The notes under the pieces: model-generated
Database searches by the model: none
Told to the model about the DNA's origin: nothing
What the model saw: the letters and a program-made list of their open reading frames with translations, nothing else
Assembly: GCA_963820415.1 (NCBI GenBank)
Contig: CAWFZT010000004.1
Coordinates: 261,344-325,343 of the forward strand
DNA length: 64,000 nucleotides
Direction of reading: 5' to 3'
From: an uncultured Chloroflexia bacterium
GTDB taxonomy: Bacteria; Chloroflexota; Anaerolineae; Anaerolineales; Anaerolineaceae
In this document: one piece after another, positions 860-27,724 of the stretch
How positions within the stretch are numbered: the first letter of the stretch is position 1
Layout: every line of letters starts with the position of its first letter
Made by a program: the position numbers and the translations under genes

Positions 860-974
860 ATCATTCTACCACGCCCTGAAAACCTGGATGAATGGTATTT
901 CCTCTTTTCCGTGTCACCATACCGGCGGAACAAGTGCAGGGTTTGACCGGATCGTTGTAATAACCGCAAGGGCA
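860..974 (-). pseudogene. comM-like 3' fragment (old target half-site), decays after about 115 bp
   Basis: The minus-strand translation from 974 is CPCGYYNDPVKPCTCSAGMVT. The intact comM at 6286-7805 reads CPCGYFNDPVKACTCSAGTVT. Nucleotide similarity to 6640-6757 ends abruptly at the GGGCA core (970-974). Confidence 0.75.
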
Positions 975-2088
975 GGCATTCCTCATATTACAACCTAAAA
1001 CGCTCGCCATAAAGGCGGTTTAACAGCTTATGGACGGATTGGCGTGATGCAATGCACCTGAGATGCGAGCGACCGATCCGCTATCCGCTGGAGCCGGTGT
1101 TGGGCCCCAGCCTTTCGAATGACTTCAACGATAACACCTTCTTCTGGGCTATAACCATACTATCTTTATGAATACCTGAACTGATTCCTCAATGGACGAA
1201 AAATCTGAAGATAGACGAACCTTCCGAGCTGTCCAAACTTGACCCTCTTGTAATTCTCCTAGTATGGCCCAACCATCAGAACAGCTGTAGTTAACGCGTT
1301 TCCCTTCGAAAGTGGCTGTTGCACCACCCATGAAGATACAATTTGTGCCATCTGCCAGCTCAAATGCCCACGCAGACTTTACGGGTGATACAGTCCCACG
1401 CCCAGGTAATGATTCTGTGAGATTTAGTTTGAAACCAGTGCTGTCACTCAGTGGGCTTGTATCGCATATTACCGCTTGACTATTTCCTGGAATACTAAAG
1501 CAAGGGTCGTAAATAGAGTTGTCTGTCATGCACCGCCATGCGTCAACTCGGTTGAGCACATTTGATGTTGACCAGCAAGAGCCAGTGCGTTCTTGAGTGG
1601 GCACACCCTCGGGGTGAAATACAATGACTTGTGTAGATTCTGATGTTGGGTTTGGTGTGAATGTGGGCGTATACGTTGGCGTAGACGTAACAGCAATTGT
1701 CATAATTATAGTTGTTGCCAGTGTTGAGGATGGCTTTGGTGTCATGGTAGTTTGAGATGGCACTTTTTCTCCTTCCGTTATGGTGCAACCGAAGGTAAAT
1801 AGTAAACAACAGCCTATGAGAAGCCATATCAGATACTTGCTAGGCAGTGAACGCTTGAAAGTGAACTGATGGTTACTTGGTGTCATTGTATTCTCTCCTG
1901 ACAAGCTAGATAGCCACTTTGGTGTAGTGGTATAGCTATAAACACCAACTCATTAGTCCTGGCGCTGGGCCTAACACGCGTATAAGCGGATCGTATAACT
2001 GCTTATAGACGATCCCTATAAAATCCCAATTGGCCGCAACTATCTTTTGGTTATCTCTAGCGTGTTTGGATTGTTATCTGCACGGGCA
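975..2088 (-). mobile_element. att-bounded single-gene module 1 (~1.1 kb), no recombinase gene
   Basis: The left end GGCATTCCTCATATTACAAC plus hairpin (976-1040) is about 75% identical to 2089-2150. The right end (2026-2083, ...TTGGTTATCTCTAGCGTGTTTGGATTGTTATCTGCAC) matches 2986-3042. The module is bounded by GGGCA cores at 970-974 and 2084-2088. Confidence 0.6.
1149..1886 (-). CDS. secreted lipoprotein with Thr/Pro-rich linker and Cys-rich C-terminal domain, function unknown (cargo of module 1)
   Basis: ORF 1149-1904. The likely start is the ATG at 1886, preceded by AGGAGAG. It has a signal peptide with lipobox-like LLFTFGC and the linker TPTYTPTFTPNPT. I recognised no family for the C-terminal domain. 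Confidence 0.6.
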   Translation of the reverse strand: MTPSNHQFTFKRSLPSKYLIWLLIGCCLLFTFGCTITEGEKVPSQTTMTPKPSSTLATTIIMTIAVTSTPTYTPTFTPNPTSESTQVIVFHPEGVPTQERTGSCWSTSNVLNRVDAWRCMTDNSIYDPCFSIPGNSQAVICDTSPLSDSTGFKLNLTESLPGRGTVSPVKSAWAFELADGTNCIFMGGATATFEGKRVNYSCSDGWAILGELQEGQVWTARKVRLSSDFSSIEESVQVFIKIVWL

Positions 2089-2321
2089 GGAATACCTCAT
2101 ATTACAACGTAGAGCGCTCACCTTATTGGTGGCTCAACGGCTTATGGGTAGATGGGCGGGAGGGACGACGGTATCAGCATTGGTGGACGGTCGTAGTCCT
2201 TCGTTGGGACTCTACGCACCACTCGAACACGGGTGGCACCTGCGGCAGTAGTGTCCGACCTGACGAATCGAAGGCCAGCCCCTCGTAGGACGAGAAGAGA
2301 CTCTTTCGAGTTACTGGGTCA

Positions 2322-2663
2322 TCAGGCTTCGATTTTCTTGATCGTGGTGTCCGCAATCACCGTTTTGATGGCGACCTTCACAGCATCTTCCATGGGATCT
2401 TTGAAGGGCACCTCGATTCGGAGCAGGCCGTTCTCGTAGATCGCTTCGGCTTTGTCAGGTTTCACTGGCCAAGCTAGAGCCAGTGATGAAACATACTCGA
2501 TGTCCCTTGCTGGTGCTGTCAGGTGGATGCTGTCTTCCAGGATCTTCAGATCGATGGTATCCGTTGGCGCTCCTGGGATGGCGAACTCCACTACTAGCTT
2601 CAGGTTCTCATCGTCAGCATACGCTACTGTATTGGGCGCAACCCTAATCCGATTTTGCGGCAT
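2322..2663 (-). CDS. Hsp20/alpha-crystallin family small heat-shock protein (cargo of module 2)
   Basis: 113-aa ORF with an alpha-crystallin domain signature (...AEAIYENGLLRIEVPFK). AAGGAGG lies 7 nt upstream of the ATG. Confidence 0.85.
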   Translation of the reverse strand: MPQNRIRVAPNTVAYADDENLKLVVEFAIPGAPTDTIDLKILEDSIHLTAPARDIEYVSSLALAWPVKPDKAEAIYENGLLRIEVPFKDPMEDAVKVAIKTVIADTTIKKIEA

Positions 2664-2707
2664 ACTGGCAACCTCCTTGTGGTTGGGAACAGCTCAACCT
2701 CGTTAAT

Positions 2708-2736
2708 ACTATAGCATTGTTGATTTTGCAGGTCAA
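2708..2736 (-). promoter_or_regulatory. near-consensus sigma70-type promoter for hsp20
   Basis: On the minus strand the element reads TTGACC (2736-2731), a 17-nt spacer, then TATAGT (2713-2708). It lies about 45 nt upstream of the hsp20 ATG. Confidence 0.6.
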
Positions 2737-3177
2737 GTACGACGGCCAGGGCCGCCTAACTAGGTGTTCAGCCGCCGTTTGGTGGCTCAACAGCTTATAG
2801 GCCGTTGCGGTCTAATCACCGAAATTAATATAGGCATTAGGCGGTCATAGGTTAAATTCTGAAATATGCTGTTTAAAGTATAACACGGCAGTCAATACCC
2901 CGGAGACAAAATGAACGAACAATTTGCATTATCACCGCACCATTGGACGACCCTTATGACCACCCCGTCTATCTACCAAACTCACGCAATGGGTGCAACC
3001 ATTTCTTGGTTATCTCAAGCGCGTTTGGATTGTTATCTGCACGAGCATGGGTTCATGGCAGCCACAAGAATGTAGTGGTCATAAATGGCACCAAGAAATG
3101 GCTTTTCACTTGGAAGTTGATTTACAGGCTTACAGAGGGCGTCTACCAGACAGTTCGCTGCATCCGGCAGGTGGAAG

Positions 3178-3908
3178 TTAAAAAGAGCGCCTGGTTTCTA
3201 CTATCAACCTGGCGCGAGCGATGATATCAAGCGGCAGTTCACTACCGGGAGGAGTATAGCCAACCGAAGTGATGTGTGTGCCTGGAGAGATCCAGGTGAT
3301 CTCAATCACTGGTGAGATTGAGGTTGTACACAGGCAGATAACATCTGCGCTTTGCACTGCCTCTTCGAAAGACTCCACTGCGTGCGCTTTGGGATTCGAC
3401 TGAGCCAGCTTCTGGTCATCTTCAAAGTAATAGGACGCGATCCTGATCTCTTCAAAGTCTCTAAGCCGAGAACAGATCTTCAAAAGGGAGGCGCCTTGAA
3501 CGCCTGCGTCGATAATGGTCAAAAAAAGCGCATCTTTACGAGACAGGTGCCTGACTGAAAGCGCCGCACAATCTGCGGTTCACATGGCAGTGATATAAGT
3601 GCCATCCATCAAAGCAACCGGTTTCCCCGTGTTCGAGTCGAAGGCGCAGATCAAAGCCTGGTGACCTGGCAAGCCTGATTTGGGATTCTCTGTAAAAACC
3701 GTGATGAGTTTCACAGTGATGACGGCTCCAGGCTGCCAGGTAGGCATGGACATCAGGTATCCCGCATTGGGAATAGTCACCAATTGCGGTTTGGAGCGAT
3801 TGCCTCACCTTTGCTGAGAGCCATAAACCCATCGGCCAGCGAATTTAACAGATCATCCTGATCCAACAGTTCCTGGACTTCTTTCTGATTGAGAAAAAGC
3901 AGTTCCAT
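3178..3908 (-). pseudogene. ornithine cyclodeaminase/mu-crystallin family gene, disrupted and 3'-truncated
   Basis: The N-terminal piece (MELLFLNQKEVQELL...APNRNW) stops at 3777. The frame shifts into ORF 3580-3783. An in-frame TGA at 3580-3582 lies inside the conserved ITA(x)RTAA motif (ITAM*TA), where CGA Arg is expected. The same frame continues as ORF 3178-3522. The C-terminal part of the family is missing. Confidence 0.75.
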
Positions 3909-5198: not shown

Positions 5199-5215
5199 TC
5201 ACATTAATTTCTTTC

Positions 5216-5292
5216 CCCAGGCGATTGCCGATCAGCTTATAATATTCGACCCGCGGTACCTGGACGTGGATGTCGATACGATCTGGCAATGA
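5216..5292 (-). pseudogene. short comM-like fragment (encodes ...DRIDIHVQVPRVEY...)
   Basis: A segment of about 77 bp aligns to comM 6596-6672 (ccccaggcg..tcag.t..t.atattcgac.cg.gg.acctgga.gtggatgtcgat). There is no homology on either side. Confidence 0.6.
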
Positions 5293-5340: not shown

Positions 5341-6255
5341 TCAGTTTACGTCGAGTTGGCGAAACCCCGCCCGTGGTCCATCCAGGGGCGGCAGGCCCAG
5401 GGCCTGTACTGCCCAGGGTAGAGCCGAAAGAAGCTGTTCGAGCTGGACCTTACGAACCAAGGGCGCCTCTGGAATGATTGGCAGCCCGGCGTGGGCGGCG
5501 AGATATCAACTCAAAAGAGCCGCGAACGGACCGCCTTCCGGTAGAATGGTGTCCGGTGCGGGACCGCCCTCTGCCTCCAGGCTGGGAAGCCAGAACGGCA
5601 GGTCGGCTGAGGGGTTCCCCTGGCAGGTCCAGTTCCAGTCAACTAAGACTACTCTATCCCCCAGAAAGCACAGGTTGTCGCTCCGCACGTCTGTATGGGT
5701 CAGAGCTTCACCGTGCAGGACTTGCTTTCCATCGACTGCCAGCAAGGTGGGTAAGGCGCACTCCAGCCAACCCCGGCTGATAAGCTCCAATCCAAGAAAC
5801 GCTTCTGGCTCATCGGCAACTTCCTTCCAGCCATCTGTAATTGAGAATTGATCTTCCAGGGGTAAGAGACCAGGCAGGGAGAAGGAGGCCAGCCGGACGA
5901 GCATATCCCGAACCAGCCCAATTTGGCGGCTAGTCCAAGGCGGGGGCCAGGCCGCTTCCGAGAGGTCTTCCAGAACGAGGAAGGGAAACTCACCTTTGTC
6001 CTCCCATGCGATCAGGCGGCATAAAAATGGTGCTTCTAGGTTGGTATAGACGGTGTACTCTTTACGCAGCCATTCAGCGGTAAGGTCGGTAGTGGCACAT
6101 TTGATAAATACTGTGTTTCCATCCTGCAAGCGGGCACGCAGACGCAAGGCGGATGTATACCCGCGCCGGATCACGTTAAGGATAGTCAATGGCTGGCTCA
6201 AGGCTCGTTCAAAACGGGCGAATAGGGCGGTAGTAATACGGTTGTCTTGCGACAT
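5341..6255 (-). pseudogene. APH/choline-kinase-type phosphotransferase with an in-frame TGA
   Basis: ORF 5506-6255 carries the kinase motif HTDVRSDNLCF...LVDWNW. After the TGA at 5506-5508 the same frame stays open for 54 more plausible codons (YLAAHAGLPIIPEAPLVRKVQLEQLLSALPWAVQALGLPP...) up to the TGA at 5341-5343. Confidence 0.6.
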
Positions 6256-6285
6256 CTGCAGAAATTTTCTTATGGCAATTCGGGA

Positions 6286-7805
6286 TTATACATCCATCCT
6301 CGGCCGGTATTGCAGCGCCTCCGCCAGGTGCGCCGGAGCTGATCTTCTCGCTGCCGGCCAGGTCGGCGATGGTGCGCGCCAGCTTGAGCACGCGGTGATA
6401 TGCGCGCGCTGAAAGCTGCAACCGCTGCATGGCAGTTTTCATCAGGCTGCGGCAGATATCATCCAGGGCGCAGTACTGGCGCACTTCGGCCGGGTGCATG
6501 TCCGCATTACAGGCAATCCCGGTACCGGTGAAGCGCTGGCGTTGGATCTGGCGGGCTGTTTCGACGCGCTGCTGCACCACGCTGGATTTTTCTCCCAGGC
6601 GGCTGTCGCTCAGTTTCTCATATTCGACGCGTGGCACCTGGATGTGGATGTCGATGCGGTCGAGCAGCGGTCCGGATATGCGCTTTTGATATTTGGTGAC
6701 CGTACCGGCCGAGCAGGTGCAGGCTTTGACCGGGTCGTTAAAATAACCGCAAGGGCACGGGTTCATGGCAGCCACAAGTTGAAAATTAGCCGGAAAAGTC
6801 AGCGACCCCTGGGCGCGGCTGATCGTAACGATCTTATCCTCGATTGGCTGGCGCATCACTTCCAGGACGCGCGGGCCAAATTCGGGCAGCTCATCCAGAA
6901 AGAGCACGCCGCGGTGCGCCAGGGATATTTCGCCGGGATGGGGCCAATTGCCCCCGCCGACCAGCCCGGCGTGAGAAATCGTGTGGTGCGGAGCGCGGAA
7001 GGGGCGCGTCCGCACCAGCGGTACATCCGGCGGTAGCTGGTCTGCCACCGAATAAATGCGGGTAACATCCAGGGCCTCATCGATCGACATGCGCGGCAGG
7101 ATCGCCGGTAGAGCACGAGCAAGTAGAGTTTTACCAGCGCCCGGCGCCCCGACCATAAGACAATTATGCCCGCCGGCTGCTGCCACTTCCAGAGCTCGTT
7201 TTACATGTTCTTGCCCTTTTATATCGCAAAAGTCGGTCTGGACTGACGGGTCAATTTCATCGATCGGGACAGGTAATTGCGGTTTCAAGCGGTGAAACCC
7301 GGTAAGATGGGCGTGCAGTTCAGCCAGGTTGGCGACTGGTATGACCTCCAGTCCGGGCACCAGGGCAGCCTCGGGCGCGTCGGTTGCGGGCACGATCAGG
7401 CATTTGAAGCCTTCCTGTCGCGCCAGGGCTGCCATAGGCAGGACGCCGCCGCGTATGGCGCACCGCCCCGTCCAGGGATAGCTCGCCGACAACCAATGTG
7501 CTGGTCACCTGTTCGGGTTCAAGGTCGCCGGTCAGCAGCATCACCCCCAGGGCAATGGGCAGGTCGTAGGCTGGGCCTTCCTTGCGGATTGAGGCTGGCG
7601 CCAGGTTGACCACCAGCCGTTTGCGCGGAATGGTCAGGCCGGCATTTTTGATGGCCGCCTGGACGCGGTTGCGCGACTCCTGCACGGCTTTGTCCGGCAG
7701 GCCGACAATGTCCATGCCGGGCAGGCCTGGACAGGTATCCACTTCGACCTCGACGACCACGCCGTCCAGACCGATAACCGCACAGGAATAGACACGCGAA
7801 AGCAT
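6286..7805 (-). pseudogene. comM: comM (YifB/Mg-chelatase-like AAA+ protein), full length but with two frame disruptions
   Basis: ORFs 7320-7805 and 6209-7492 overlap in different frames. The junction ...GELSLDGAVR/IRGGVLPMAALA lies near 7452-7462. It has a Walker A motif (GAPGAGKT) and the MNPCPCG motif. Near 6331-6337 a second shift replaces the expected C-terminus ISSAHLAEALQYRPRMDV* (stop at 6286-6288), which is readable in the adjacent frame. Confidence 0.8.
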
Positions 7806-16186: not shown

Positions 16187-17065
16187 ATGGCTGGGAAACG
16201 CAGGGTATTTTTGATTATCCTGGGTATTACGATCCTGGGGATGCTGGGCTTGTCAATTGGGCTAACCGGTCTGCCATTTCAACCTGGCAATATGCTTCCA
16301 TTAAGTGGAACTTTGCCATACGGCAATTACCAGGGATTTGACCTTCCTGGCGGGCCGATGCTGCTCCAGGCTCTCCGCATTATCTATATCATCGCCTTGC
16401 TGGTACTGCCAGTTGTGATGATCTACCTGATCATATCGCCAGTTGCCAGGCGGCGGTTGATAAAATTCTTAGTGCGCATCCTCCCATTTGTTGTGGGACT
16501 TTACCTTTTTATACTGTTTCTTAAAAGGCTGCAAGACACCAATCCACAGAGTACCCCATTAATCCTTGGAGGATCAGGCACTCAACCCGCTCCGTCTGTT
16601 TTACCCACTCCGGCGCCAATCCCTGGGCCATCCGAGACAGCTATCGTATGGATCAGCGCCGGAATATCTCTAGTCACGGTGTCTGCCCTTGCATGGGCGC
16701 TGTGGCTGCTATGGCGAAGGCGTAAGCTTGATTTATCTCCAAACCGGCTTATCGCCCGGCAGGCGCAATCTGCCCTGGATGCCCTGCAGGCTGGCGGTAA
16801 TTTGAAGAACACGATTGTGCGGTGTTATTACCAGATGAGCGCAGTCATCAATAAACAGCGCGGAATACTGCGCAGCCAGGCAATGACTCCCCACGAATTT
16901 GAGGAATACTTGACCACACACGGCTTACCTGGCGAACCGATCCACCAACTTACCCACCTTTTTGAAGAAGTTCGTTACGGTGATCTGGAGGCTGGCGCGG
17001 CCGAAGAACAGGTGGCTCTGAACTGCCTGAAAGCGATTGTCGACGCTTGCGGGAGAACAGGTTGA
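16187..17065 (+). CDS. membrane protein with C-terminal DUF4129-like domain
   Basis: 292 aa with TM segments. The C-terminus TPHEFEEYLTTHGLP...LTHLFEEVRYGD matches the DUF4129 signature. Confidence 0.65.
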   Translation: MAGKRRVFLIILGITILGMLGLSIGLTGLPFQPGNMLPLSGTLPYGNYQGFDLPGGPMLLQALRIIYIIALLVLPVVMIYLIISPVARRRLIKFLVRILPFVVGLYLFILFLKRLQDTNPQSTPLILGGSGTQPAPSVLPTPAPIPGPSETAIVWISAGISLVTVSALAWALWLLWRRRKLDLSPNRLIARQAQSALDALQAGGNLKNTIVRCYYQMSAVINKQRGILRSQAMTPHEFEEYLTTHGLPGEPIHQLTHLFEEVRYGDLEAGAAEEQVALNCLKAIVDACGRTG

Positions 17066-17745
17066 AGAATAAATTATCGTCCGGCAAGATCATCCTGCTG
17101 GCCATTCTGGGAATTTTGCTGGTGGCTGCCCTGACACTGGCCCTGACTGATCTGGTTCGCAACGTTTTAGCCGTACCCATAACCCACATATTTTATTTCC
17201 TCGGGTTGTTGGTGAAAAGTACCCCTCAGGTGATTTTTTGGGGGCTGCTGCTGCTTTTCTTGCTGGTTGTGGCTGGTAAGAGCGTGCAGGAAAACCGCCG
17301 CCATGAACTTCCGGAATTTGTTGCTACGCTGCGGTCTCCCAAACATGAGCGGATCGCCTTCTGGGCCAACCATATCAATATGGCCTTGCGAGGTGACCAT
17401 TATTCGCGCACCCGCCTGGCGGAATTCCTGGCCGGTATGGTTATAGAACTGTTTGCTCAGGAAGAGCGTGTTTCCACAGTTGAGGTCCGCCAGCAGCTCG
17501 AACATGGAGAACTGGACCTGCCGCCTGAAATCGAAAATTACCTGAAAGCTCGCTTTACACAAGGTACCATTACCAGGCCGAGTTTTTGGCAAAGGGTCGA
17601 AGATAAACTAGCCCGTTTTTGGAATTCCTTCCCTGGAAAAAACAACCTCGACCCAGGGGTTCTGCCTGACCATCTTACCCGGCAGGAATTAGAGAGAATA
17701 ATCCAATATCTGGAAGATCGATTGGAGGTTGAACATGTCGGTTGA
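17047..17745 (+). CDS. membrane protein, unknown function (operon partner of MoxR/DUF58)
   Basis: 232-aa ORF with two N-terminal TM segments. It overlaps the neighbouring genes at both ends. Confidence 0.55.
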   Translation: MRENRLKNKLSSGKIILLAILGILLVAALTLALTDLVRNVLAVPITHIFYFLGLLVKSTPQVIFWGLLLLFLLVVAGKSVQENRRHELPEFVATLRSPKHERIAFWANHINMALRGDHYSRTRLAEFLAGMVIELFAQEERVSTVEVRQQLEHGELDLPPEIENYLKARFTQGTITRPSFWQRVEDKLARFWNSFPGKNNLDPGVLPDHLTRQELERIIQYLEDRLEVEHVG

Positions 17746-18703
17746 CGTTGCACAGGTGGCAGCCCTTTCTGACCTGGTAGTAGCGCAGGTCGAAAAAGCC
17801 GTAGTTGGGAAGCAAGCCGTGCTCAAGATGATCATGGCGGCCATTCTATCAAGCGGCGGGCACGTGCTACTCGAAGATTATCCAGGTCTGGCCAAGACGC
17901 TGATCGCCAACAGCTTTGCTACGGCGTTGGGGCTGTCTTTCAAACGCATCCAGTTTACCCCCGACCTGCTCCCCGGGGATATCACCGGCGGATACGTATA
18001 CGACCGGTCGCAAAATCAATTCCTTTTGCGCAAAGGGCCCATCTTTGCCAACATTATCCTGGCTGATGAAATTAACCGCGCCTCTCCACGTACCCAGTCA
18101 GCCTTGCTCGAAGCTATGCAGGAATACCAGGTAACACTGGAAGGCGATACCATGCGGCTGCCTGAGCCTTTCATCACCCTCGCCACACAAAACCCAATTG
18201 AATATGAAGGGACCTTCCCTTTACCTGAAGCACAGCTTGACCGTTTCATCATGAAACTGTCGGTGGGATACCCCGCAGTAGAAGATGAACGCCTCATTCT
18301 CCAACGCCGGCGCGACCGCCGGCGCGATGAATTTTCTTTACAGCCAGTAGCTGATACGAAACGCCTGCTTGAAATCCGCCAGGCGGTTGAGGAAGTCCAC
18401 CTCGACTCTGATATTGAGGATTATATCGTCCAGGTTGTCACTAAGACGCGCCAGCATCGCAAGGTGGTGGTGGGGGCTAGCCCGCGCGCTACCCTGGCCT
18501 TACTGAAATTGACCCGCGCCTGGGCTGCCATGCATGGACGCAGCTACGTACTGCCGGATGACGTGAAACTGTTCGCCAGGCCGGTCTTGATCCATCGTTT
18601 GATCCTGGAGCCCGACCTGTGGACCCAGAGAAATGCTGCTGAGGATGTTGTAGCGGACATTTTACGCACTGTACCTGTACCGGTCATCAAGGAAGTTGAA
18701 TGA
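17735..18703 (+). CDS. MoxR-family AAA+ ATPase
   Basis: It has LLEDYPGLAKT (Walker A variant), ADEINRASPRTQSALLEAM and LATQNPIEYEGTFPLPEAQLDRF. The ATG at 17735 lies 6 nt after GGAGG. Confidence 0.85.
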   Translation: MSVDVAQVAALSDLVVAQVEKAVVGKQAVLKMIMAAILSSGGHVLLEDYPGLAKTLIANSFATALGLSFKRIQFTPDLLPGDITGGYVYDRSQNQFLLRKGPIFANIILADEINRASPRTQSALLEAMQEYQVTLEGDTMRLPEPFITLATQNPIEYEGTFPLPEAQLDRFIMKLSVGYPAVEDERLILQRRRDRRRDEFSLQPVADTKRLLEIRQAVEEVHLDSDIEDYIVQVVTKTRQHRKVVVGASPRATLALLKLTRAWAAMHGRSYVLPDDVKLFARPVLIHRLILEPDLWTQRNAAEDVVADILRTVPVPVIKEVE

Positions 18704-19989
18704 CCCAGCGGTTCCTGCTGCTGATCTTCTTCCTTTATTCCTTGCTGTTCCTAGGTTTAGCCAGCCGGACAGGTGCAGTTATTGCCCTGGCGATCCCTTT
18801 TGCAGTATACCTGGGCGCCGCGCTTATTTTTATCCCCGATAAGCCGGAATTGAGCGCCCGGCGGACACTCAGCACGCAGCATGTCACACAGGGAGTAACC
18901 GTAACCGTCAGGGTTGAAATTACCAATCTTGGTGAAAAGGTTGAAGAGCTGCTTGTGCGGGATGTTCTGCCCGCCGAGGTCGAGCTGGTCCAGGGAAAGA
19001 CCAGGGCGGTGGCGACCCTGTCTCCTGGAAAAACGGTTGACCTGGAATACGAAGTAAAAGCCAAACGAGGACGCTATACTTTCAATTATGCTCAGGCCAC
19101 AGCTACCGATTATCTGGAATTATTTGAAAGGAGGGTCACCCTGGAAGCGGCAGCAGATCTGCTGATCCTCCCGCAAGTGCAGAAACTGCACTCCATTCCC
19201 ATCCGGCCTTTACGCACGCATGGGTTTTCAGGCCCGATTCCCTCCCGTAAAGTAGGGTCAGGGGTCAATTTCCTTAACATCCGGGGATACCAGGCTGGCG
19301 ATCCTTTGCGCTGGATTAATTGGCGGGTCAGCGCTCGCCATACTGATGAGTTATTTTCAAACGAATTTGAGCTGGAGCGCATTGCCGATATCGGGATAAT
19401 CCTGGATGCTCGCCAGCAGAGCGATGTAGAAGCGCAGGATGGCAACCTTTTTGAATATGCGGTTCATGCGACCGCCTCCCTGGCAGATGCTTTCCTGGGG
19501 GATGGAAACCGGGTAGGCCTGCTGATTTATGGTAGGGGAATGGAATCGACCTTTCCTGGTTATGGTAAAAAACAACGGCAGCGTATATTACAGTCGCTTG
19601 GACGCGCCAGGACGGGCAACAGCTATGCCTTTAAAAGCCTGGAAAATTTACCCACTCGTTTCTTCCCTTCCGGATCTCAAATTGTATTGGTCAGTCCTCT
19701 TGACCGTGAGGATATTCCCGTCTTGATTCAATTGCGCGCCCTGGGTTACGAGTTGATGGTGGTCAGTCCAAATTCGCTCTCTTTCGAAGCCAGGCATTAT
19801 AAAGAAGAAAAAACCGCAGGCCTTGCCAGTCGCATAGCCAATTTGGAACGAGCCATGATGATTCACAGTCTGAGACGAGTTGGCATCCCGGTGGTAAATT
19901 GGCAGGTAGAAAGCTCTCTGGATAATGCTCTGCACCGCACGGTCAGTTTAATGGTGAAAAAACAGCATATTTTAAAGGTGTCCAAATGA
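18700..19989 (+). CDS. DUF58 domain protein (vWA-like, MoxR partner)
   Basis: 429 aa with two N-terminal TM helices. It has the DUF58 signature (GYQAGDPLRWINWRVSARH) and an ATGA overlap with moxR. Confidence 0.8.
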   Translation: MTQRFLLLIFFLYSLLFLGLASRTGAVIALAIPFAVYLGAALIFIPDKPELSARRTLSTQHVTQGVTVTVRVEITNLGEKVEELLVRDVLPAEVELVQGKTRAVATLSPGKTVDLEYEVKAKRGRYTFNYAQATATDYLELFERRVTLEAAADLLILPQVQKLHSIPIRPLRTHGFSGPIPSRKVGSGVNFLNIRGYQAGDPLRWINWRVSARHTDELFSNEFELERIADIGIILDARQQSDVEAQDGNLFEYAVHATASLADAFLGDGNRVGLLIYGRGMESTFPGYGKKQRQRILQSLGRARTGNSYAFKSLENLPTRFFPSGSQIVLVSPLDREDIPVLIQLRALGYELMVVSPNSLSFEARHYKEEKTAGLASRIANLERAMMIHSLRRVGIPVVNWQVESSLDNALHRTVSLMVKKQHILKVSK

Positions 19990-23948: not shown

Positions 23949-25541
23949 TTATCCAGTCCTGGAACGGTCCTGCCAGTTACGCAGTGTGGTCATCACCCGT
24001 TTCCAAAATTCTTGCAGCAGGTTGGCTTTTTCTCCATCAATCTCGTGCTTGCTGTAACGGGCTTCAACGAAAGAATCAGTGAGCGCATCAATTTCATTTT
24101 CAACTTCTGGCAGCGAAGTGCGCAAGGTCTGCTCGAATTGGAGTGGGGTTTGATGGAGCTTGCGCGGCAGCCCGTGCTGACCGCTGCGGCGGATCAGGGT
24201 CAGGTAATAGAAAATGACTTTCTGGCGTGGAGGAAGGCGGCGCGGGTTGGAGTACTCGGAGTTCTCAGCATTTGTCTTCGCTGAAAGAGCCGACCGGCCT
24301 CTCTGAAATGTAGCTGCCAGTGTATCCGAGATCTGTTGATTCACCCCCCGCAGCCAGGACCAAATGGATTTCAGTCCGGCGATGAACCAGGCAATAAAGG
24401 AGAGGCGTCCAAGAGAAGAAATTAGAACTTTATTCTGGATCACATACGTCTTGATTGCATAAAACAGGACTGCTGCGAATATCACCCAGAAAACCACCGC
24501 TCGTACCGTTTCCAGCCAGGGCAGCGGCGCAGGCGGGGGCGTGGTCTGTACCGGGCCAAATTGAGGAGTTCCCGGAGTTTGCGGCTGTTCCTGATTATTG
24601 CCTTTGAAGAACAATGAAAAAAACCAGGTGAAGAAAAAAGCAATTAAGGCAATGATAAATAAGAATATTTGGATGATATAAAAGAAGATGATTTGCAGGG
24701 CATATAGCAGTTGCAATGAATAATGGGTTGGTAAAAGGAGAATCAGGAAACCCAGAAGGACAAAAAATGCCAGCGTGTAGATAATCCAGTTCCTCGATAG
24801 AGCTGGGCTGACGGGGGTCCGTTGCCACAACCACCTGCCGTGAAGCAAGGCGAATTGGCTCTGGCTCAATAAAATGAGCGCCAGAACGAAATAGATGACC
24901 ACGTTGAGGACAGGCGCCTGCCAGGCATCCGGGATGCCCATCTGGGCCGGGAGGTTTGTCCGGGTAAGGGCCGTGAAAAATACGATGACCAGGCCGGTGC
25001 CTAATACAATTTCCAGCAACCGCTGGTGGGTGAACAGGCGATCTTTCTCCAGGAATCCGATATTTTCGTTAAAAACATCTTCTTCGTCGCTCTGTAACGT
25101 CTCAAAATCGGCCAGCAGGCGCCCACAGAGCAGACGGGTACTAAAGATCAGTATGACATCCAGAAAATATTCGAGAGAGAAAAAGGTGGACAGGTCCGTC
25201 TGCCATTGTTGGACATCGACCAGAATCTGGCTAAAACCGTGCAGGAAATACAAAAGGATTTTTACCAGGATGGCGATAAAAACAAACTCGGACGCCAGGA
25301 AGATTATTTTATCCCGCCCGGTCAGGGAACGAGTGATGTTTCGGGAAAGAATCGTTTCCAGGCTAACCGCCAGGAAAAACCAGGCCAGATAGGACCCATT
25401 CCAGCCGGGCGACATGCGCTCGCCAAAATTGACGAAGGTGATTCCGATACAGGCCATCATAATGCAAATAATGAATTGACCGGCGATGAAGGACAATTTC
25501 CGGTTCACCAAGAAATTCTTCTGCAAATTCTTGATGTTCAC
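23949..25541 (-). CDS. large polytopic membrane protein with C-terminal DUF4129-like domain
   Basis: 530 aa with many TM segments. The C-terminus TPLQFEQTLRTSLPEV...FVEARYSKHE is DUF4129-like. It has a 4-nt overlap with the DUF58 gene. Confidence 0.65.
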   Translation of the reverse strand: MNIKNLQKNFLVNRKLSFIAGQFIICIMMACIGITFVNFGERMSPGWNGSYLAWFFLAVSLETILSRNITRSLTGRDKIIFLASEFVFIAILVKILLYFLHGFSQILVDVQQWQTDLSTFFSLEYFLDVILIFSTRLLCGRLLADFETLQSDEEDVFNENIGFLEKDRLFTHQRLLEIVLGTGLVIVFFTALTRTNLPAQMGIPDAWQAPVLNVVIYFVLALILLSQSQFALLHGRWLWQRTPVSPALSRNWIIYTLAFFVLLGFLILLLPTHYSLQLLYALQIIFFYIIQIFLFIIALIAFFFTWFFSLFFKGNNQEQPQTPGTPQFGPVQTTPPPAPLPWLETVRAVVFWVIFAAVLFYAIKTYVIQNKVLISSLGRLSFIAWFIAGLKSIWSWLRGVNQQISDTLAATFQRGRSALSAKTNAENSEYSNPRRLPPRQKVIFYYLTLIRRSGQHGLPRKLHQTPLQFEQTLRTSLPEVENEIDALTDSFVEARYSKHEIDGEKANLLQEFWKRVMTTLRNWQDRSRTG

Positions 25542-26731
25542 GCCCGGTTTCTCCAGATTTCAAGATCCCGTTCAAACCACACCGGATAAACGGGAATATT
25601 GAACTGCCTGGCCTGTTGGCGGATTTCAGCCAGACCGGTGATGTTTCCACACAAAACCAGCACCACATCCAATCCTGCGCGCTGAGCGCGGTAAAATTCT
25701 TCAAACAATGTTTTATCCGCTTGCCCGGTAATTGCCACTAACGTTGATCCCCAGGAAAGGTGCACTCGCTGCTGGCGAATCAGCTCATTGACTGAGGTCG
25801 TATCGACCGTTTTCACTCGGGCAAGGGTTTCCAGAATTCGGATTAAATGACCGCGGCCCTTGTGCGGAGGCAACGGCTGAGTAATTTTGTCTTCGCACAG
25901 GGGATCCATTCCATTCGTTGCCAGCCCCACCGACTGTTTATGGGCGACTGCCCAGTTGGCGATAGAGGCGGCGGCGGTGATGGCGGTTTCAGTAGCGTCG
26001 AAGCGCGTTTTGTATTGATATTCTTCGTTGTTAAGGTTCAAGAAAATGGCGATCTCCAACTCGATGGAGGGTTCGAACTGCTTGACCTGCAGCCGTCCGA
26101 CCGACGCCGAGGCTTTCCAATCGATGCGGCGCAAGGAATCGCCGGTTATATAATCCCTTTTTCCGGTTGGCCTGTTAGGATCTTCGAATATGGGTTGTTT
26201 GTAGCGCAGCGTGCCAATCGGCGCGTGAGAAGGCAGGTTCAACTCGATAATCGGCACCACTCTGGGATAAACGATAATGTAATCGGATTTTCCTTCAAAC
26301 CGTTTTTCTTTTGTTAAACCCAGCACGTCTCCGGAGGAAAGTTGAAGCGGTCCAATGTTGTAATAGCCTCTTTTACGGCCGAACAACTGGTAGGATAAAC
26401 GCACACGTTGGCGGGGCGCCAGGGTTAGCACGCGTTGGAAAGTTGGCGATGTGCGAATCTCGACCGGCACTGATTCTTGCAGCTTCACCCATACCGCTGG
26501 CAGTCTGCCTTGATTGGTTACCTCGATTTCCAGAGTGATGATCTCACCCAGAAAGATCCTTTTTGAAAAAGTACGCCTGAAGGTAATTGATGCCAGGGCG
26601 CGTTCACTCCACCAGCGGCCTAGTAAGAATGCCCCCAACAGCAAGTAAAGCAGGGTAAAGACGAAGTTATCCTGGGTGGCAATAGCCATAGCAAGTAACA
26701 GAATGACATAGATTAAAATGGGTGCGTCCAC
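25538..26731 (-). CDS. DUF58 domain protein (MoxR partner)
   Basis: 397 aa with N-terminal TM helices and the motif DYITGDSLRRIDWKASAS. Confidence 0.8.
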   Translation of the reverse strand: MDAPILIYVILLLAMAIATQDNFVFTLLYLLLGAFLLGRWWSERALASITFRRTFSKRIFLGEIITLEIEVTNQGRLPAVWVKLQESVPVEIRTSPTFQRVLTLAPRQRVRLSYQLFGRKRGYYNIGPLQLSSGDVLGLTKEKRFEGKSDYIIVYPRVVPIIELNLPSHAPIGTLRYKQPIFEDPNRPTGKRDYITGDSLRRIDWKASASVGRLQVKQFEPSIELEIAIFLNLNNEEYQYKTRFDATETAITAAASIANWAVAHKQSVGLATNGMDPLCEDKITQPLPPHKGRGHLIRILETLARVKTVDTTSVNELIRQQRVHLSWGSTLVAITGQADKTLFEEFYRAQRAGLDVVLVLCGNITGLAEIRQQARQFNIPVYPVWFERDLEIWRNRA

Positions 26732-26776
26732 GAATCCTCGTTACGCAAAACCTGGCTGTTGGCATGCACAGCCATC

Positions 26777-27724
26777 TTACTTGAGATTGCCGATTTCTAA
26801 AGGTACCTGGGTCAATATGTCTTGAAGAATTGAGGCAGTGACGCGGCCGCGCAGCTCGGCTTCAGGTGATAGGACCAGGCGGTGGGTCAGTACTGCGGGA
26901 GCCAGGTATTGTATATCGTCCGGTATTACATGATCGCGACCTTTCATGGCTGCATACGCCTGTGCTGCGCGAAACAGGGCCAGGCTGGCCCGCGGGCTGG
27001 CGCCCAGGGAAAGGTCAGGATGGTGGCGGGTCGCATCAGATAGTTTCACAATATAATCATGCAGTGTGTCATCCACGTGGATATCCCACACCTGGTGCTG
27101 TAATTCGACCAGCCTCGTACCTTCTTCAACGCTGTGCAGGTGTAAGATGGGGTGTTCATACTGGAGGTGGGTCAAGAGCAGTTTCTCGTCCACCTGAGAA
27201 GGATATCCCATCGAGAGGCGCATTAAGAAGCGGTCGAGCTGAGCTTCGGGCAGCGGGAATGTGCCTTCGTATTCGATGGGATTTTCCGTCGCCAACACCA
27301 GAAAGGGTCGAGGTAGAGAGTAAGTGATGCCATCTACCGTGACCTGCTGCTCCTGCATGGCCTCAAGCAGGGCAGACTGGGTGCGCGGGGTGGCGCGGTT
27401 GATTTCATCTACCAGCATAATATTGACGAAAATCGGTCCCGGATGGAACTCAAATGAGCTGGTTTTCTGGTTGTACACCGACACACCGGTCACGTCGTTT
27501 GGCAGCAGGTCGGGTGTGCATTGGATCCGTTTGAATTTTCCGCCCAGGCTGGTAGCCATGGAACGCGCCAGCATGGTTTTTCCTACTCCAGGGACATCTT
27601 CCAGTAATACGTGCCCCTCACACAATAAGGCTACCATCAATAATTCGATTACCGGGCGTTTTCCGACAATCACATTTTCGACATTTTCAGTGACATGCGT
27701 CACAAATTCCTGAATGGTAGTCAT
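26777..27724 (-). CDS. MoxR-family AAA+ ATPase
   Basis: 315 aa. It has LLEDVPGVGKT, VDEINRATPRTQSALLEAM and LATENPIEYEGTFPLPEAQLDRF. Confidence 0.85.
   Translation of the reverse strand: MTTIQEFVTHVTENVENVIVGKRPVIELLMVALLCEGHVLLEDVPGVGKTMLARSMATSLGGKFKRIQCTPDLLPNDVTGVSVYNQKTSSFEFHPGPIFVNIMLVDEINRATPRTQSALLEAMQEQQVTVDGITYSLPRPFLVLATENPIEYEGTFPLPEAQLDRFLMRLSMGYPSQVDEKLLLTHLQYEHPILHLHSVEEGTRLVELQHQVWDIHVDDTLHDYIVKLSDATRHHPDLSLGASPRASLALFRAAQAYAAMKGRDHVIPDDIQYLAPAVLTHRLVLSPEAELRGRVTASILQDILTQVPLEIGNLK

Follow-up and report, generated by a model that had tools for sequence, protein, structure and literature searches.

Very probable site-specific integration of tandem, recombinase-less cassettes at the NPC/PCG codons of comM in Anaerolineae

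Composite islands of the staphylococcal cassette chromosome (SCC) and pseudo-SCC type are built from tandem cassettes that occupy a single chromosomal attachment site (attB) in a conserved gene, rlmH (orfX), with the core repeat present at the boundaries. Many of their units have no recombinase of their own; a neighbour or a relative encodes the large serine recombinases, often CcrA with CcrB, on which they rely. Tandem accretion of att-bounded units without integration genes is also known for cis-mobilisable elements (CIMEs) and for integrative and conjugative or integrative and mobilisable elements (ICEs and IMEs), for example ICESt1/ICESt3 of Streptococcus thermophilus. In this study we analyze a 64,000-nt stretch from an uncultured member of the Anaerolineaceae (contig CAWFZT010000004.1; the whole stretch is referred to as the window) in which two modules of 1114 and 960 bp (970-3043), each with a minus-strand open reading frame (ORF), lie between remnants of the comM gene, and compare it with other Chloroflexota loci and contigs fetched for comparison (L001-L038). 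The SCC/pseudo-SCC composite island, and CIME accretion more generally, are the closest described systems in mechanism and layout. The original prediction, made from the window alone, had likened the architecture to accreted cis-mobilisable elements or integron-like cassettes; the former likeness stands as a CIME/pseudo-SCC layout, while the integron likeness holds for the architecture only.

The differences from these systems are nonetheless considerable. Unlike SCC, the comM modules occur in another phylum, lie inside the coding sequence of their target rather than at a 3' end, and have unrelated and much longer arms; many are single-gene units of ~1 kb and some carry a replacement comM 3' half. 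Mobilization in trans, as in SCC, is for the comM cassettes putative. Described CIMEs are deletion derivatives of tyrosine-integrase ICEs at gene 3' ends, whereas the comM units look like purpose-built small cassettes and the recombinases found at their site are serine type only. Integron cassettes share with them short, mostly co-oriented and recombinase-less units, a conserved recombination sequence and diverse cargo, but the comM arrays have a crossover at TGCCC in mid-unit, no IntI and no attI by an integrase gene, and use a housekeeping gene as platform. Single autonomous elements with a serine recombinase are known to split other conserved genes, namely the A118-like prophage (Listeria comK), skin/SpoIVCA (sigK) and the fdxN element/XisF. 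Their precise excision can restore the gene, and the Listeria target is likewise a competence gene; the comM arrays differ in being non-autonomous and in that some cassettes restore the gene on entry. Within the Chloroflexota, the Dehalococcoides islands at ssrA reportedly carry, typically, a recombinase of their own. These islands (McMurdie et al. 2011, PMC3146451) form tandem arrays at one site, as here, are bounded by target-end repeats and involve a serine recombinase, but unlike the comM cassettes they target the tmRNA gene. Finally, comM itself is the dedicated target of Tn6022/AbaR and of Tsy, which use TnsF, insert at Walker B codons and bring their own machinery; Tsy moves as a circular intermediate and leaves comM divided into a 5' and a 3' part (Faure et al. 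2023, PMC10293859). That machinery is TnsABC for Tn6022 and a tyrosine recombinase (YRec) with a helix-turn-helix (HTH) protein and TnsF for Tsy; the comM modules carry neither, and the NPC/PCG site lies ~48 codons (~140 bp) downstream of the Walker B DE. No description of comM cassette arrays in Chloroflexota was found in the literature searched.

It had been proposed that two circles integrated in tandem at the MNPC/PCG codons of a comM gene and left four sites that align around a 5-bp core. The sequence agrees with that wording at all four:

6744-6780, plus-strand reading: comM attB site, TAACCGCAA-GGGCA-CGGGTTCATGGCAGCCACAAG
961-994, plus-strand reading: junction C, comM left side and element arm, core GGGCA
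2074-2108, plus-strand reading: junction A, element arm and element arm, core GGGCA
3034-3068, plus-strand reading: junction B, element arm and comM right side, core GAGCA

Because comM is on the minus strand, we describe the elements in comM sense, in which B and B' are the 5' and 3' halves of the comM site and P and P' the left and right arms of a module. The parts of the two modules that take part in the junctions are as follows:

970..974, minus strand: core copy C, GGGCA on the plus strand and TGCCC in comM sense
975..1074, minus strand: left arm (P) of module 1 (nhmmer 970-1074, E 7e-27)
1986..2083, minus strand: right arm (P') of module 1 (nhmmer 1986-2088, E 9e-22)
2084..2088, minus strand: core copy A, the arm-core-arm (attP-type) junction between the modules
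2089..2191, minus strand: left arm (P) of module 2 (nhmmer 2084-2191, E 1e-24)
2860..3043, minus strand: right arm (P') of module 2 with a shared leader, homologous to modules of L009 and L018
3044..3048, minus strand: core copy B, GAGCA on the plus strand and TGCTC in comM sense, with one mismatch

Repeat finding and blastn within the window pair the two left arms (974-1047 with 2088-2161, 76%, E 3e-10) and the two right arms (2036-2084 with 2995-3043, ~90%, E 1e-13; 86% when extended to 2031-2088 and 2990-3047). The same blastn search matches 913-974 to comM 6696-6757 as a 3'-side fragment (85%, E 3e-14) and 3039-3068 to comM as a 5'-side fragment (90%), and finds no further arm copies in the 64-kb window. 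Additionally, nhmmer profiles built from arm copies at other loci match the window arms at E 1e-22 to 1e-27, the right arm of module 2 at 2945-3047 (E 1e-27). These blastn E-values and profile matches place the junctions and arm similarities well above chance. The lengths that had been proposed need some revision. The arms are conserved as stated, but beyond the expected ~60-70 bp on each side: the right-arm family reaches ~100 bp, and in module 2 ~190 bp when the shared leader is counted (blastn of 2860-3068 against L018, E 2e-54; of 2863-3050 against L009, E 9e-59). On the left of junction C there is comM similarity, yet of the ~115 bp claimed only ~60-90 bp are firm (~880/909-969), as 909-980 aligns to ComM residues 244-267 by tblastn and the fainter likeness to ~880 is seen by eye only.

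The arms are not confined to this locus. Profile searches with arm copies retrieve more than 20 copies of the right arm and over 10 of the left, those of the window among them, at E 1e-20 to 1e-30, so the expectation that arms would occur in other Chloroflexota genomes and metagenome contigs is borne out. A 20-base stretch of the right arm leads to six loci in Chloroflexota metagenome-assembled genomes, at each of which ~55-100 bp of arm and a GGGCA-like core are followed by differing sequence. A left-arm pattern leads to eight metagenome contigs, most of which have arm-GGGCA-arm as in junction A; L007-L013 are metagenome contigs with this junction type. When the window modules are compared with all fetched loci by blastn, the arms alone match (E to 1e-59) and the cargo never does. 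The partners of the arms are always joined at the 5-bp core and are comM 5' halves (L010/L012 and L018), comM 3' halves (L023, L025, L036 and L037), other arms, or secondary sites. For example, in L010 at least five modules form an array of 11 kb, and its last right arm is joined to a genuine comM 5' half; in L012, which represents the same locus, ComM residues 147-248 are covered at 80% identity. In L018, a comM 5' half is followed by TGCCC, a right arm and three modules. The comM 5' halves of L010/L012 and L018 are broken exactly at AAMNPC/PCG, and thus the same arms sit at the same comM codons in independent genomes. Cargo across modules includes secreted proteins, stress proteins, methyltransferases, restriction-modification and Abi defence genes; no recombinase gene was found within the ~15 modules examined at other loci. 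As a separate observation, a frameshifted IS110-family transposase gene lies directly after a right-arm/core junction at L004:2888-4042, a placement in keeping with the tendency of IS110 elements to insert into repeats.

Use of this codon as an attachment site extends across the Anaerolineae. A ComM N-terminal query returns many homologues of 351-356 residues that end exactly in ...AAMNPCP, ...NPCPCR or similar, and dozens of Anaerolineae ComM homologues stop at the NPC/PCG codon. A C-terminal query correspondingly returns many separate proteins of 160-210 residues, and on the longer contigs inspected these halves start ...CPCGYY... with unrelated residues ahead. In L037/L038, two intact comM halves enclose a single recombinase-less module of 4.8 kb that has TGCCC at each end, and the inner arm of this module shares the distal half of the window right arm. 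In L023/L024, a 5.5-kb island (AbiEii, helicases) comes after a whole comM, and beyond the island lies another comM 3' half, displaced and starting at the core; the island came with a replacement 3' half. In L025, a series of three comM 3' halves is present. A comparison of L015 and L017 with L016 shows identical comM 5' halves and upstream genes and differing cargo past the junction, and L015 and L016 are strains of one species. Overall, comM is unoccupied in the window copy, in L019 (where it is frameshifted) and in L023, and split in L010, L018, L030 and L037. Both the further modules and the empty comM sites that had been sought are thus present in related genomes, and occupancy is polymorphic as anticipated. 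We also observe that the post-comM islands of L015 and L016 (11.1-18.2 kb) carry a type III restriction-modification system and that the island of L016 is longer by 2.7 kb, in which a DprA-like gene and a HAD hydrolase are encoded; neither a core nor an arm was found at the boundary of this extra stretch.

Alignment of the four kinds of site in comM sense locates the crossover:

attB: ...ATGAACCCG TGCCC TTGCGGTTAT...
B-P': ...ATGAAYCCA TGCCC GTGCAGATAACAATCC...
P-P': ...GTTGTAATATGAGGAATGCC TGCCC GTGCAGATAAC...
P-B': ...GAGGAATGCC TGCCC TTGCGGTTATTAC...

The base preceding the core tracks the left partner and the base following it tracks the right partner, and consequently the exchange lies within TGCCC. 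Junctions B, A and C have the hybrid relation to the comM attB that attL and attR sites have, and genuine comM halves show it in L010, L018 and L037. At sites outside comM, a TGCCC-like pentamer persists (three TGCCC, one CGCCC and one TGAGC) and the adjoining flank resembles a comM half-site, which points to sequence-specific recombination rather than to duplication of a target site. The left arm contains an inverted, imperfect copy of the right-arm repeats (CATATTACAAC...AAAACGC), so that the joined arms form a long imperfect dyad centred at or beside the core. The pentamer dyad of attP is GTTGT-N15-TGCCC-N9-ACAAT, with the centre at or next to TG/CC. The comM-like copy of the window (junctions B and C) reads CTTGT-N16-TGCCC-N11-ACAAC and has its centre there too; the motif is not kept in all comM species.

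Arm recurrence, core-precise breaks, polymorphic occupancy and modules without a recombinase all support tandem integration at the MNPC/PCG codons, and we consider it very probable that the window modules are tandem, recombinase-less cassettes integrated site-specifically at comM NPC/PCG. The two are best read as independent, non-autonomous units. In comM sense, each consists of TGCCC, a right arm (P', ~100 bp, with two AGATAAC repeats), one cargo gene, a left arm (P, ~80 bp) and TGCCC. In a circular form, left arm, TGCCC and right arm would be joined into an attP of ~190 bp. Two such circles probably entered successively by conservative site-specific recombination with a crossover inside TGCCC, taking the AAMNPC/PCG coding stretch as attB and yielding B-core-P' (junction B), P-core-P' (junction A) and P-core-B' (junction C).

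The comM sequences of the window suggest what the target may have been:

880..969, minus strand: comM 3'-side remnant (B' half of the occupied site), encoding ...CPCGYYNDPVKPCTCSAGMVT
3049..3070, minus strand: comM 5'-side-like half-site (B half, ...LVAAMNP), 22 bp
5212..5283, minus strand: third comM-like fragment, ComM residues 272-307
6209-7805, minus strand: full-length comM with an unoccupied attB at 6744..6780, codons AAMNPC/PCG

On the minus strand, the order is comM (7805-6209), a kinase-like gene, the comM fragment 5283-5212, a membrane-protein gene, a broken cyclodeaminase gene, the half-site 3070-3049, TGCTC, module 2, TGCCC, module 1, TGCCC and the comM remnant 969-~880. The occupied remnant and the full-length gene are 3.2 kb apart. 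We propose that earlier islands with their own comM 3' halves can integrate at comM and displace the older 3' halves downstream, as in L023 and L025. Joined to the old 3' half, the distal end of an island of this kind would resemble attB, and the two small cassettes would have entered there with the working gene undisturbed. Rather than a decayed second gene, the window target is thus more likely the attB-like terminus of an island that had arrived earlier with a comM 3' end of its own, a history that would explain why a full-length comM remains at 6209-7805. The 22-bp half-site and an additional common flank, TGACCAC, recur beside a right arm in L001, and this recurrence supports an element end rather than a random remnant. 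The 5212-5283 fragment is probably a remnant of another displaced comM 3' end.

Since the cassettes lack a recombinase, the enzyme must act in trans. We propose that it would most likely be a large serine recombinase, single or as a pair, supplied by autonomous elements at the same comM site in related Anaerolineae, much as pseudo-SCC elements relate to SCCmec that carries ccrAB. Candidates are found in L030-L035, where ComM ends in AAMNPCP and the junction ATGAATCCC-TGCCC-TTAGGGTTACACACAATTG (TTAGGG...) is at the identical comM position. Directly past this junction, on the opposite strand and reading into comM, are two large serine recombinases of 607 and 567 residues, which have 55% identity and both contain the domains Resolvase, Recombinase and Zn_ribbon_recom. 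Also encoded are an excisionase-family HTH protein of 96 residues, a ParA homologue and a DnaA_N-domain protein. Both recombinases match XisF, CcrB and CcrC weakly in NCBIfam, and a tandem serine recombinase pair at the comM site with weak CcrB/CcrC and XisF similarity is a further likeness to SCC. Moreover, the outer P arm of L023/L025 (ACATTGTGTGTATCCC-TGCCC) repeats, in inverted orientation, the P' arm of the L030 element (TGCCC-TTAGGGTTACACACAAT), with 10 consecutive bases shared and 13/16 overall. Such inverted arms form the dyad expected of a serine-recombinase attP and tie at least one recombinase-less module family to such a site. For the window arm family, the putative link to the L030 recombinases would consist of the shared site and a similar dyad layout only. 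A partner recombinase next to a similar site had been called for; the serine pair at the same comM site is a candidate, but the arm beside it is not of the window family. In L030 (10983-11056) we also note that the first serine recombinase ORF crosses the attachment junction into antisense comM, and so its C-terminal 25-30 residues would differ between the integrated and the circular form.

Several observations weigh against this account. The L030 P' arm is not homologous to the window right arm beyond a short ACAAT motif, and no large serine recombinase was seen in one array with window-type arms. There is also no recombinase in the window: Pfam searches of the ORFs at ~1-42 kb found housekeeping genes only, tblastn with two queries found no large serine recombinase in all 64 kb, and a box II regular expression together with tblastn with tyrosine integrase and IS110 queries found no tyrosine recombinase in the same 64 kb. 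The arms, at 80-100 bp each, exceed the 40-50 bp that a large serine recombinase needs, and arms this long are more typical of a tyrosine-integrase attP. The mismatch in the core of junction B (TGCTC) means that this copy may be a fossil. Lastly, a simple model does not account for the 5212-5283 fragment and the permuted order, as this fragment (residues 272-307) and ~880-969 (residues 244-267) are adjacent in comM but 4.3 kb apart here. We favour the full statement, including a large serine recombinase that acts in trans, with moderate confidence. In a separate search of viral contigs, neither window arm, nor the L030 arm, nor the inverted arm that pairs with it gave more than chance matches, and the same holds for relatives of the L030 recombinase.

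The same cassettes could instead be served by a tyrosine recombinase, either a lambda-type integrase of an ICE, IME or prophage or a host Xer-like enzyme, in which case the modules would be classical CIMEs or hitchhikers resembling the integrative mobile elements exploiting Xer (IMEX). A long attP of ~190 bp is in keeping with such an enzyme, as are the direct repeats (two AGATAAC in the right arm and two CCGCCAAT in the left arm) and the arm inverted repeats, which resemble arm-type sites. The attP and attB share five bases and, one base on, a conserved TGC, which fits an overlap region of 6-8 bp, and Tsy provides a known tyrosine-recombinase family that targets comM (PMC10293859). However, Tsy uses the Walker B region, ~140 bp upstream of NPC/PCG, and the recombinases found exactly at NPC/PCG are of the serine type only. 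The arrays examined contain no tyrosine recombinase and the window lacks a box II motif; the sole tyrosine integrase seen (L014) is 4 kb from the junction, beside a tRNA-like fragment. We regard a tyrosine recombinase as unlikely, though it is the main rival.

If the modules were non-autonomous transposons, Tn7/Tn6022-like or of another 5-bp-duplicating family steered to comM by a target selector, TGCCC would be a target-site duplication made anew with every insertion. The presence of n+1 copies of a 5-bp sequence around n modules is as such a family would leave it, Tn6022-type elements target comM and make 5-bp duplications (PMC10293859, PMC11014353), and the subterminal inverted repeats and 22-bp-spaced repeats recall TnsB sites. 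Yet the 5 bp by the right arm are TGCCC-like even away from comM, which duplication of an arbitrary target would not give, and the termini (GTGCAG... and ...ATGCC) are neither TGT...ACA nor inverted repeats. As there is furthermore no tnsABC or tniQ in any array and the site differs from the Walker B site of TnsF, transposition is very improbable.

Subterminal inverted repeats and a shared core are also features of IS1111-type elements, which insert site-specifically. The modules might by this analogy be cargo-carrying IS110/IS1111 derivatives, moved by an IS110-family recombinase under the guidance of a bridge or seek RNA encoded in the conserved arm, and IS110 transposase genes do occur near right arms in L002, L004 and L005, while the right-arm sequence G.GCCC-N1-2-TGCGG resembles the comM target. 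Against this, the arms have no conserved RNA fold (RNAalifold of the right arm, -2 kcal/mol) and no meaningful match in Rfam, where a single sub-threshold snoRNA match falls outside the feature. The copy common to L002 and L004 stops before the arm, the L004 copy is an insertion beside the junction, and neither the window nor most arrays have an IS110 gene. With the IS copies of L002, L004 and L005 being separate insertions, we rejected the bridge-RNA reading, and an IS110 origin in general is highly improbable.

Integron gene cassettes, or a cluster of attC sites lacking an integrase (CALIN), with IntI acting at attC would also give one-gene, mostly co-oriented and recombinase-less units parted by a conserved repeat of ~130-190 bp, and hairpins with GCCTAAC/GTTAGGC do occur at 1960-2016 and 2750-2801. 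But these GTTAGGC hairpins are internal and not at module boundaries, the crossover is at TGCCC in mid-unit and not at G/TTRRRY at an edge, both sides of the junction are conserved, no intI was seen in the arrays, and the gene at the array start is always a comM 5' half; an integron is barely credible. That no mobile element is involved, with local duplication, rearrangement, misassembly or homologous exchange through flanking comM instead, is hardly conceivable in spite of the apparent frameshifts in the assembly and the permuted comM fragments, because the same arms and breakpoint occur with unrelated cargo in independent assemblies, projects and species and because the arms of the window modules differ by 10-24%, which excludes a recent duplication.

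Returning to cassettes mobilized in trans by a large serine recombinase, we offer a broader and tentative idea, namely that comM NPC/PCG in Anaerolineae could be a serine-recombinase counterpart of the integron, a fixed capture site for a pool of recombinase-less cassettes. Cassettes would be inserted, stacked and exchanged in trans, some would bring a replacement comM 3' half, and ComM would be reversibly switched on and off. If so, a whole bacterial class would use a codon-precise spot in a near-universal gene to dock small recombinase-less cassettes, in a cassette-array system with an enzyme and a platform other than those of integrons. This would explain why so many Anaerolineae comM genes are annotated as truncated and would couple the coming and going of cassettes to the state of a gene for natural transformation. 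For genome engineering, candidate landing pads would then be offered by the recombinases together with the comM attB, a short sequence conserved across bacteria.

The remaining features of the two modules are as follows:

1149..1904, minus strand: cargo 1, a 251-residue ORF with a signal-peptide-like N-terminus and a Cys
2322..2663, minus strand: cargo 2, a 113-residue alpha-crystallin/Hsp20-like protein with matches that are weak and below family cut-offs
2708..2736, minus strand: sigma-70-like promoter TTGACC-17-TATAGT for cargo 2, followed by an AAGGAGG ribosome-binding site
2750..2801, minus strand: internal hairpin element whose 5' half equals that of the left-arm hairpin and which ends in GTTAGGC

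The ORF list and the Pfam and NCBIfam scans agree with the original prediction that each module has one minus-strand ORF and no recombinase. Cargo 1 had been called a lipoprotein, to which its N-terminus and Cys conform, but no family match was found in Pfam or NCBIfam. The hsp20 assignment of cargo 2 holds as an alpha-crystallin-type similarity that is weak and below cut-offs (Pfam HSP20, E 0.0026; small heat-shock proteins in the PDB, E 0.05; archaeal Hsp20 in NCBIfam, E 7.6e-12, under the cut-off of that family). Its proposed promoter is found at 2736-2708 on the minus strand. Exact-product look-ups of cargo proteins 1 and 2 and of the window ComM gave no match. In module 1, the left arm has a hairpin, CCGCC/GGCGAG, followed by GTTGTAATATGAGGAATGCC, and the right arm has its two AGATAAC repeats spaced by 22 bp. 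Left-arm hairpins in general (GCCGCC/GGCGAGC and then TTTT) have stems of 4-6 bp, are terminator-like and show one compensatory change (CCACC/GGTG against CCGCC/GGCG). A partial left-arm-like hairpin at ~1960-2016 overlaps the inner end of the module 1 right arm. Related hairpin elements (CATAAGCNGTTGAGCC...GGCTGA.CACCTA) occur upstream of cargo genes inside modules at 2750-2801 and 1960-2016 of the window and at L018:5407, and the window copies end in GTTAGGC, the integron core sequence. An attC reading of the GCCTAAC/GTTAGGC and ATAAGCNGTTRRRC hairpins was ruled out, as the crossover is at TGCCC and the hairpins are internal.

The second comM had been described as full-length. The gene does span 6209-7805, but with two apparent frameshifts: it is represented by two overlapping ORFs with a shifted C-terminus, and the other frame gives the canonical ...HLAEALQYRPRMDV end. 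The nearby ornithine cyclodeaminase-family gene (3178-3908) is likewise split, into three ORFs, and these breaks could be indel errors of long reads or real pseudogenes. The outer borders of the comM fragments at 5212-5283 and ~880-969 both carry CTGG(C)AATGAAT(A)G, which could be a second recombination site or a coincidence. Elsewhere in the window, two paralogous MoxR(AAA_3)-DUF58-DUF4129 clusters lie on opposite strands (16187-19989 and 23949-27724), and a similar cluster sits within the L025 comM array. Finally, an 8.6-kb element with a single large serine recombinase (L020:742-10576) splits comM in its Walker A (GPPGAGKT) codons; as this is another element at another site, comM attracts several element families in this clade.

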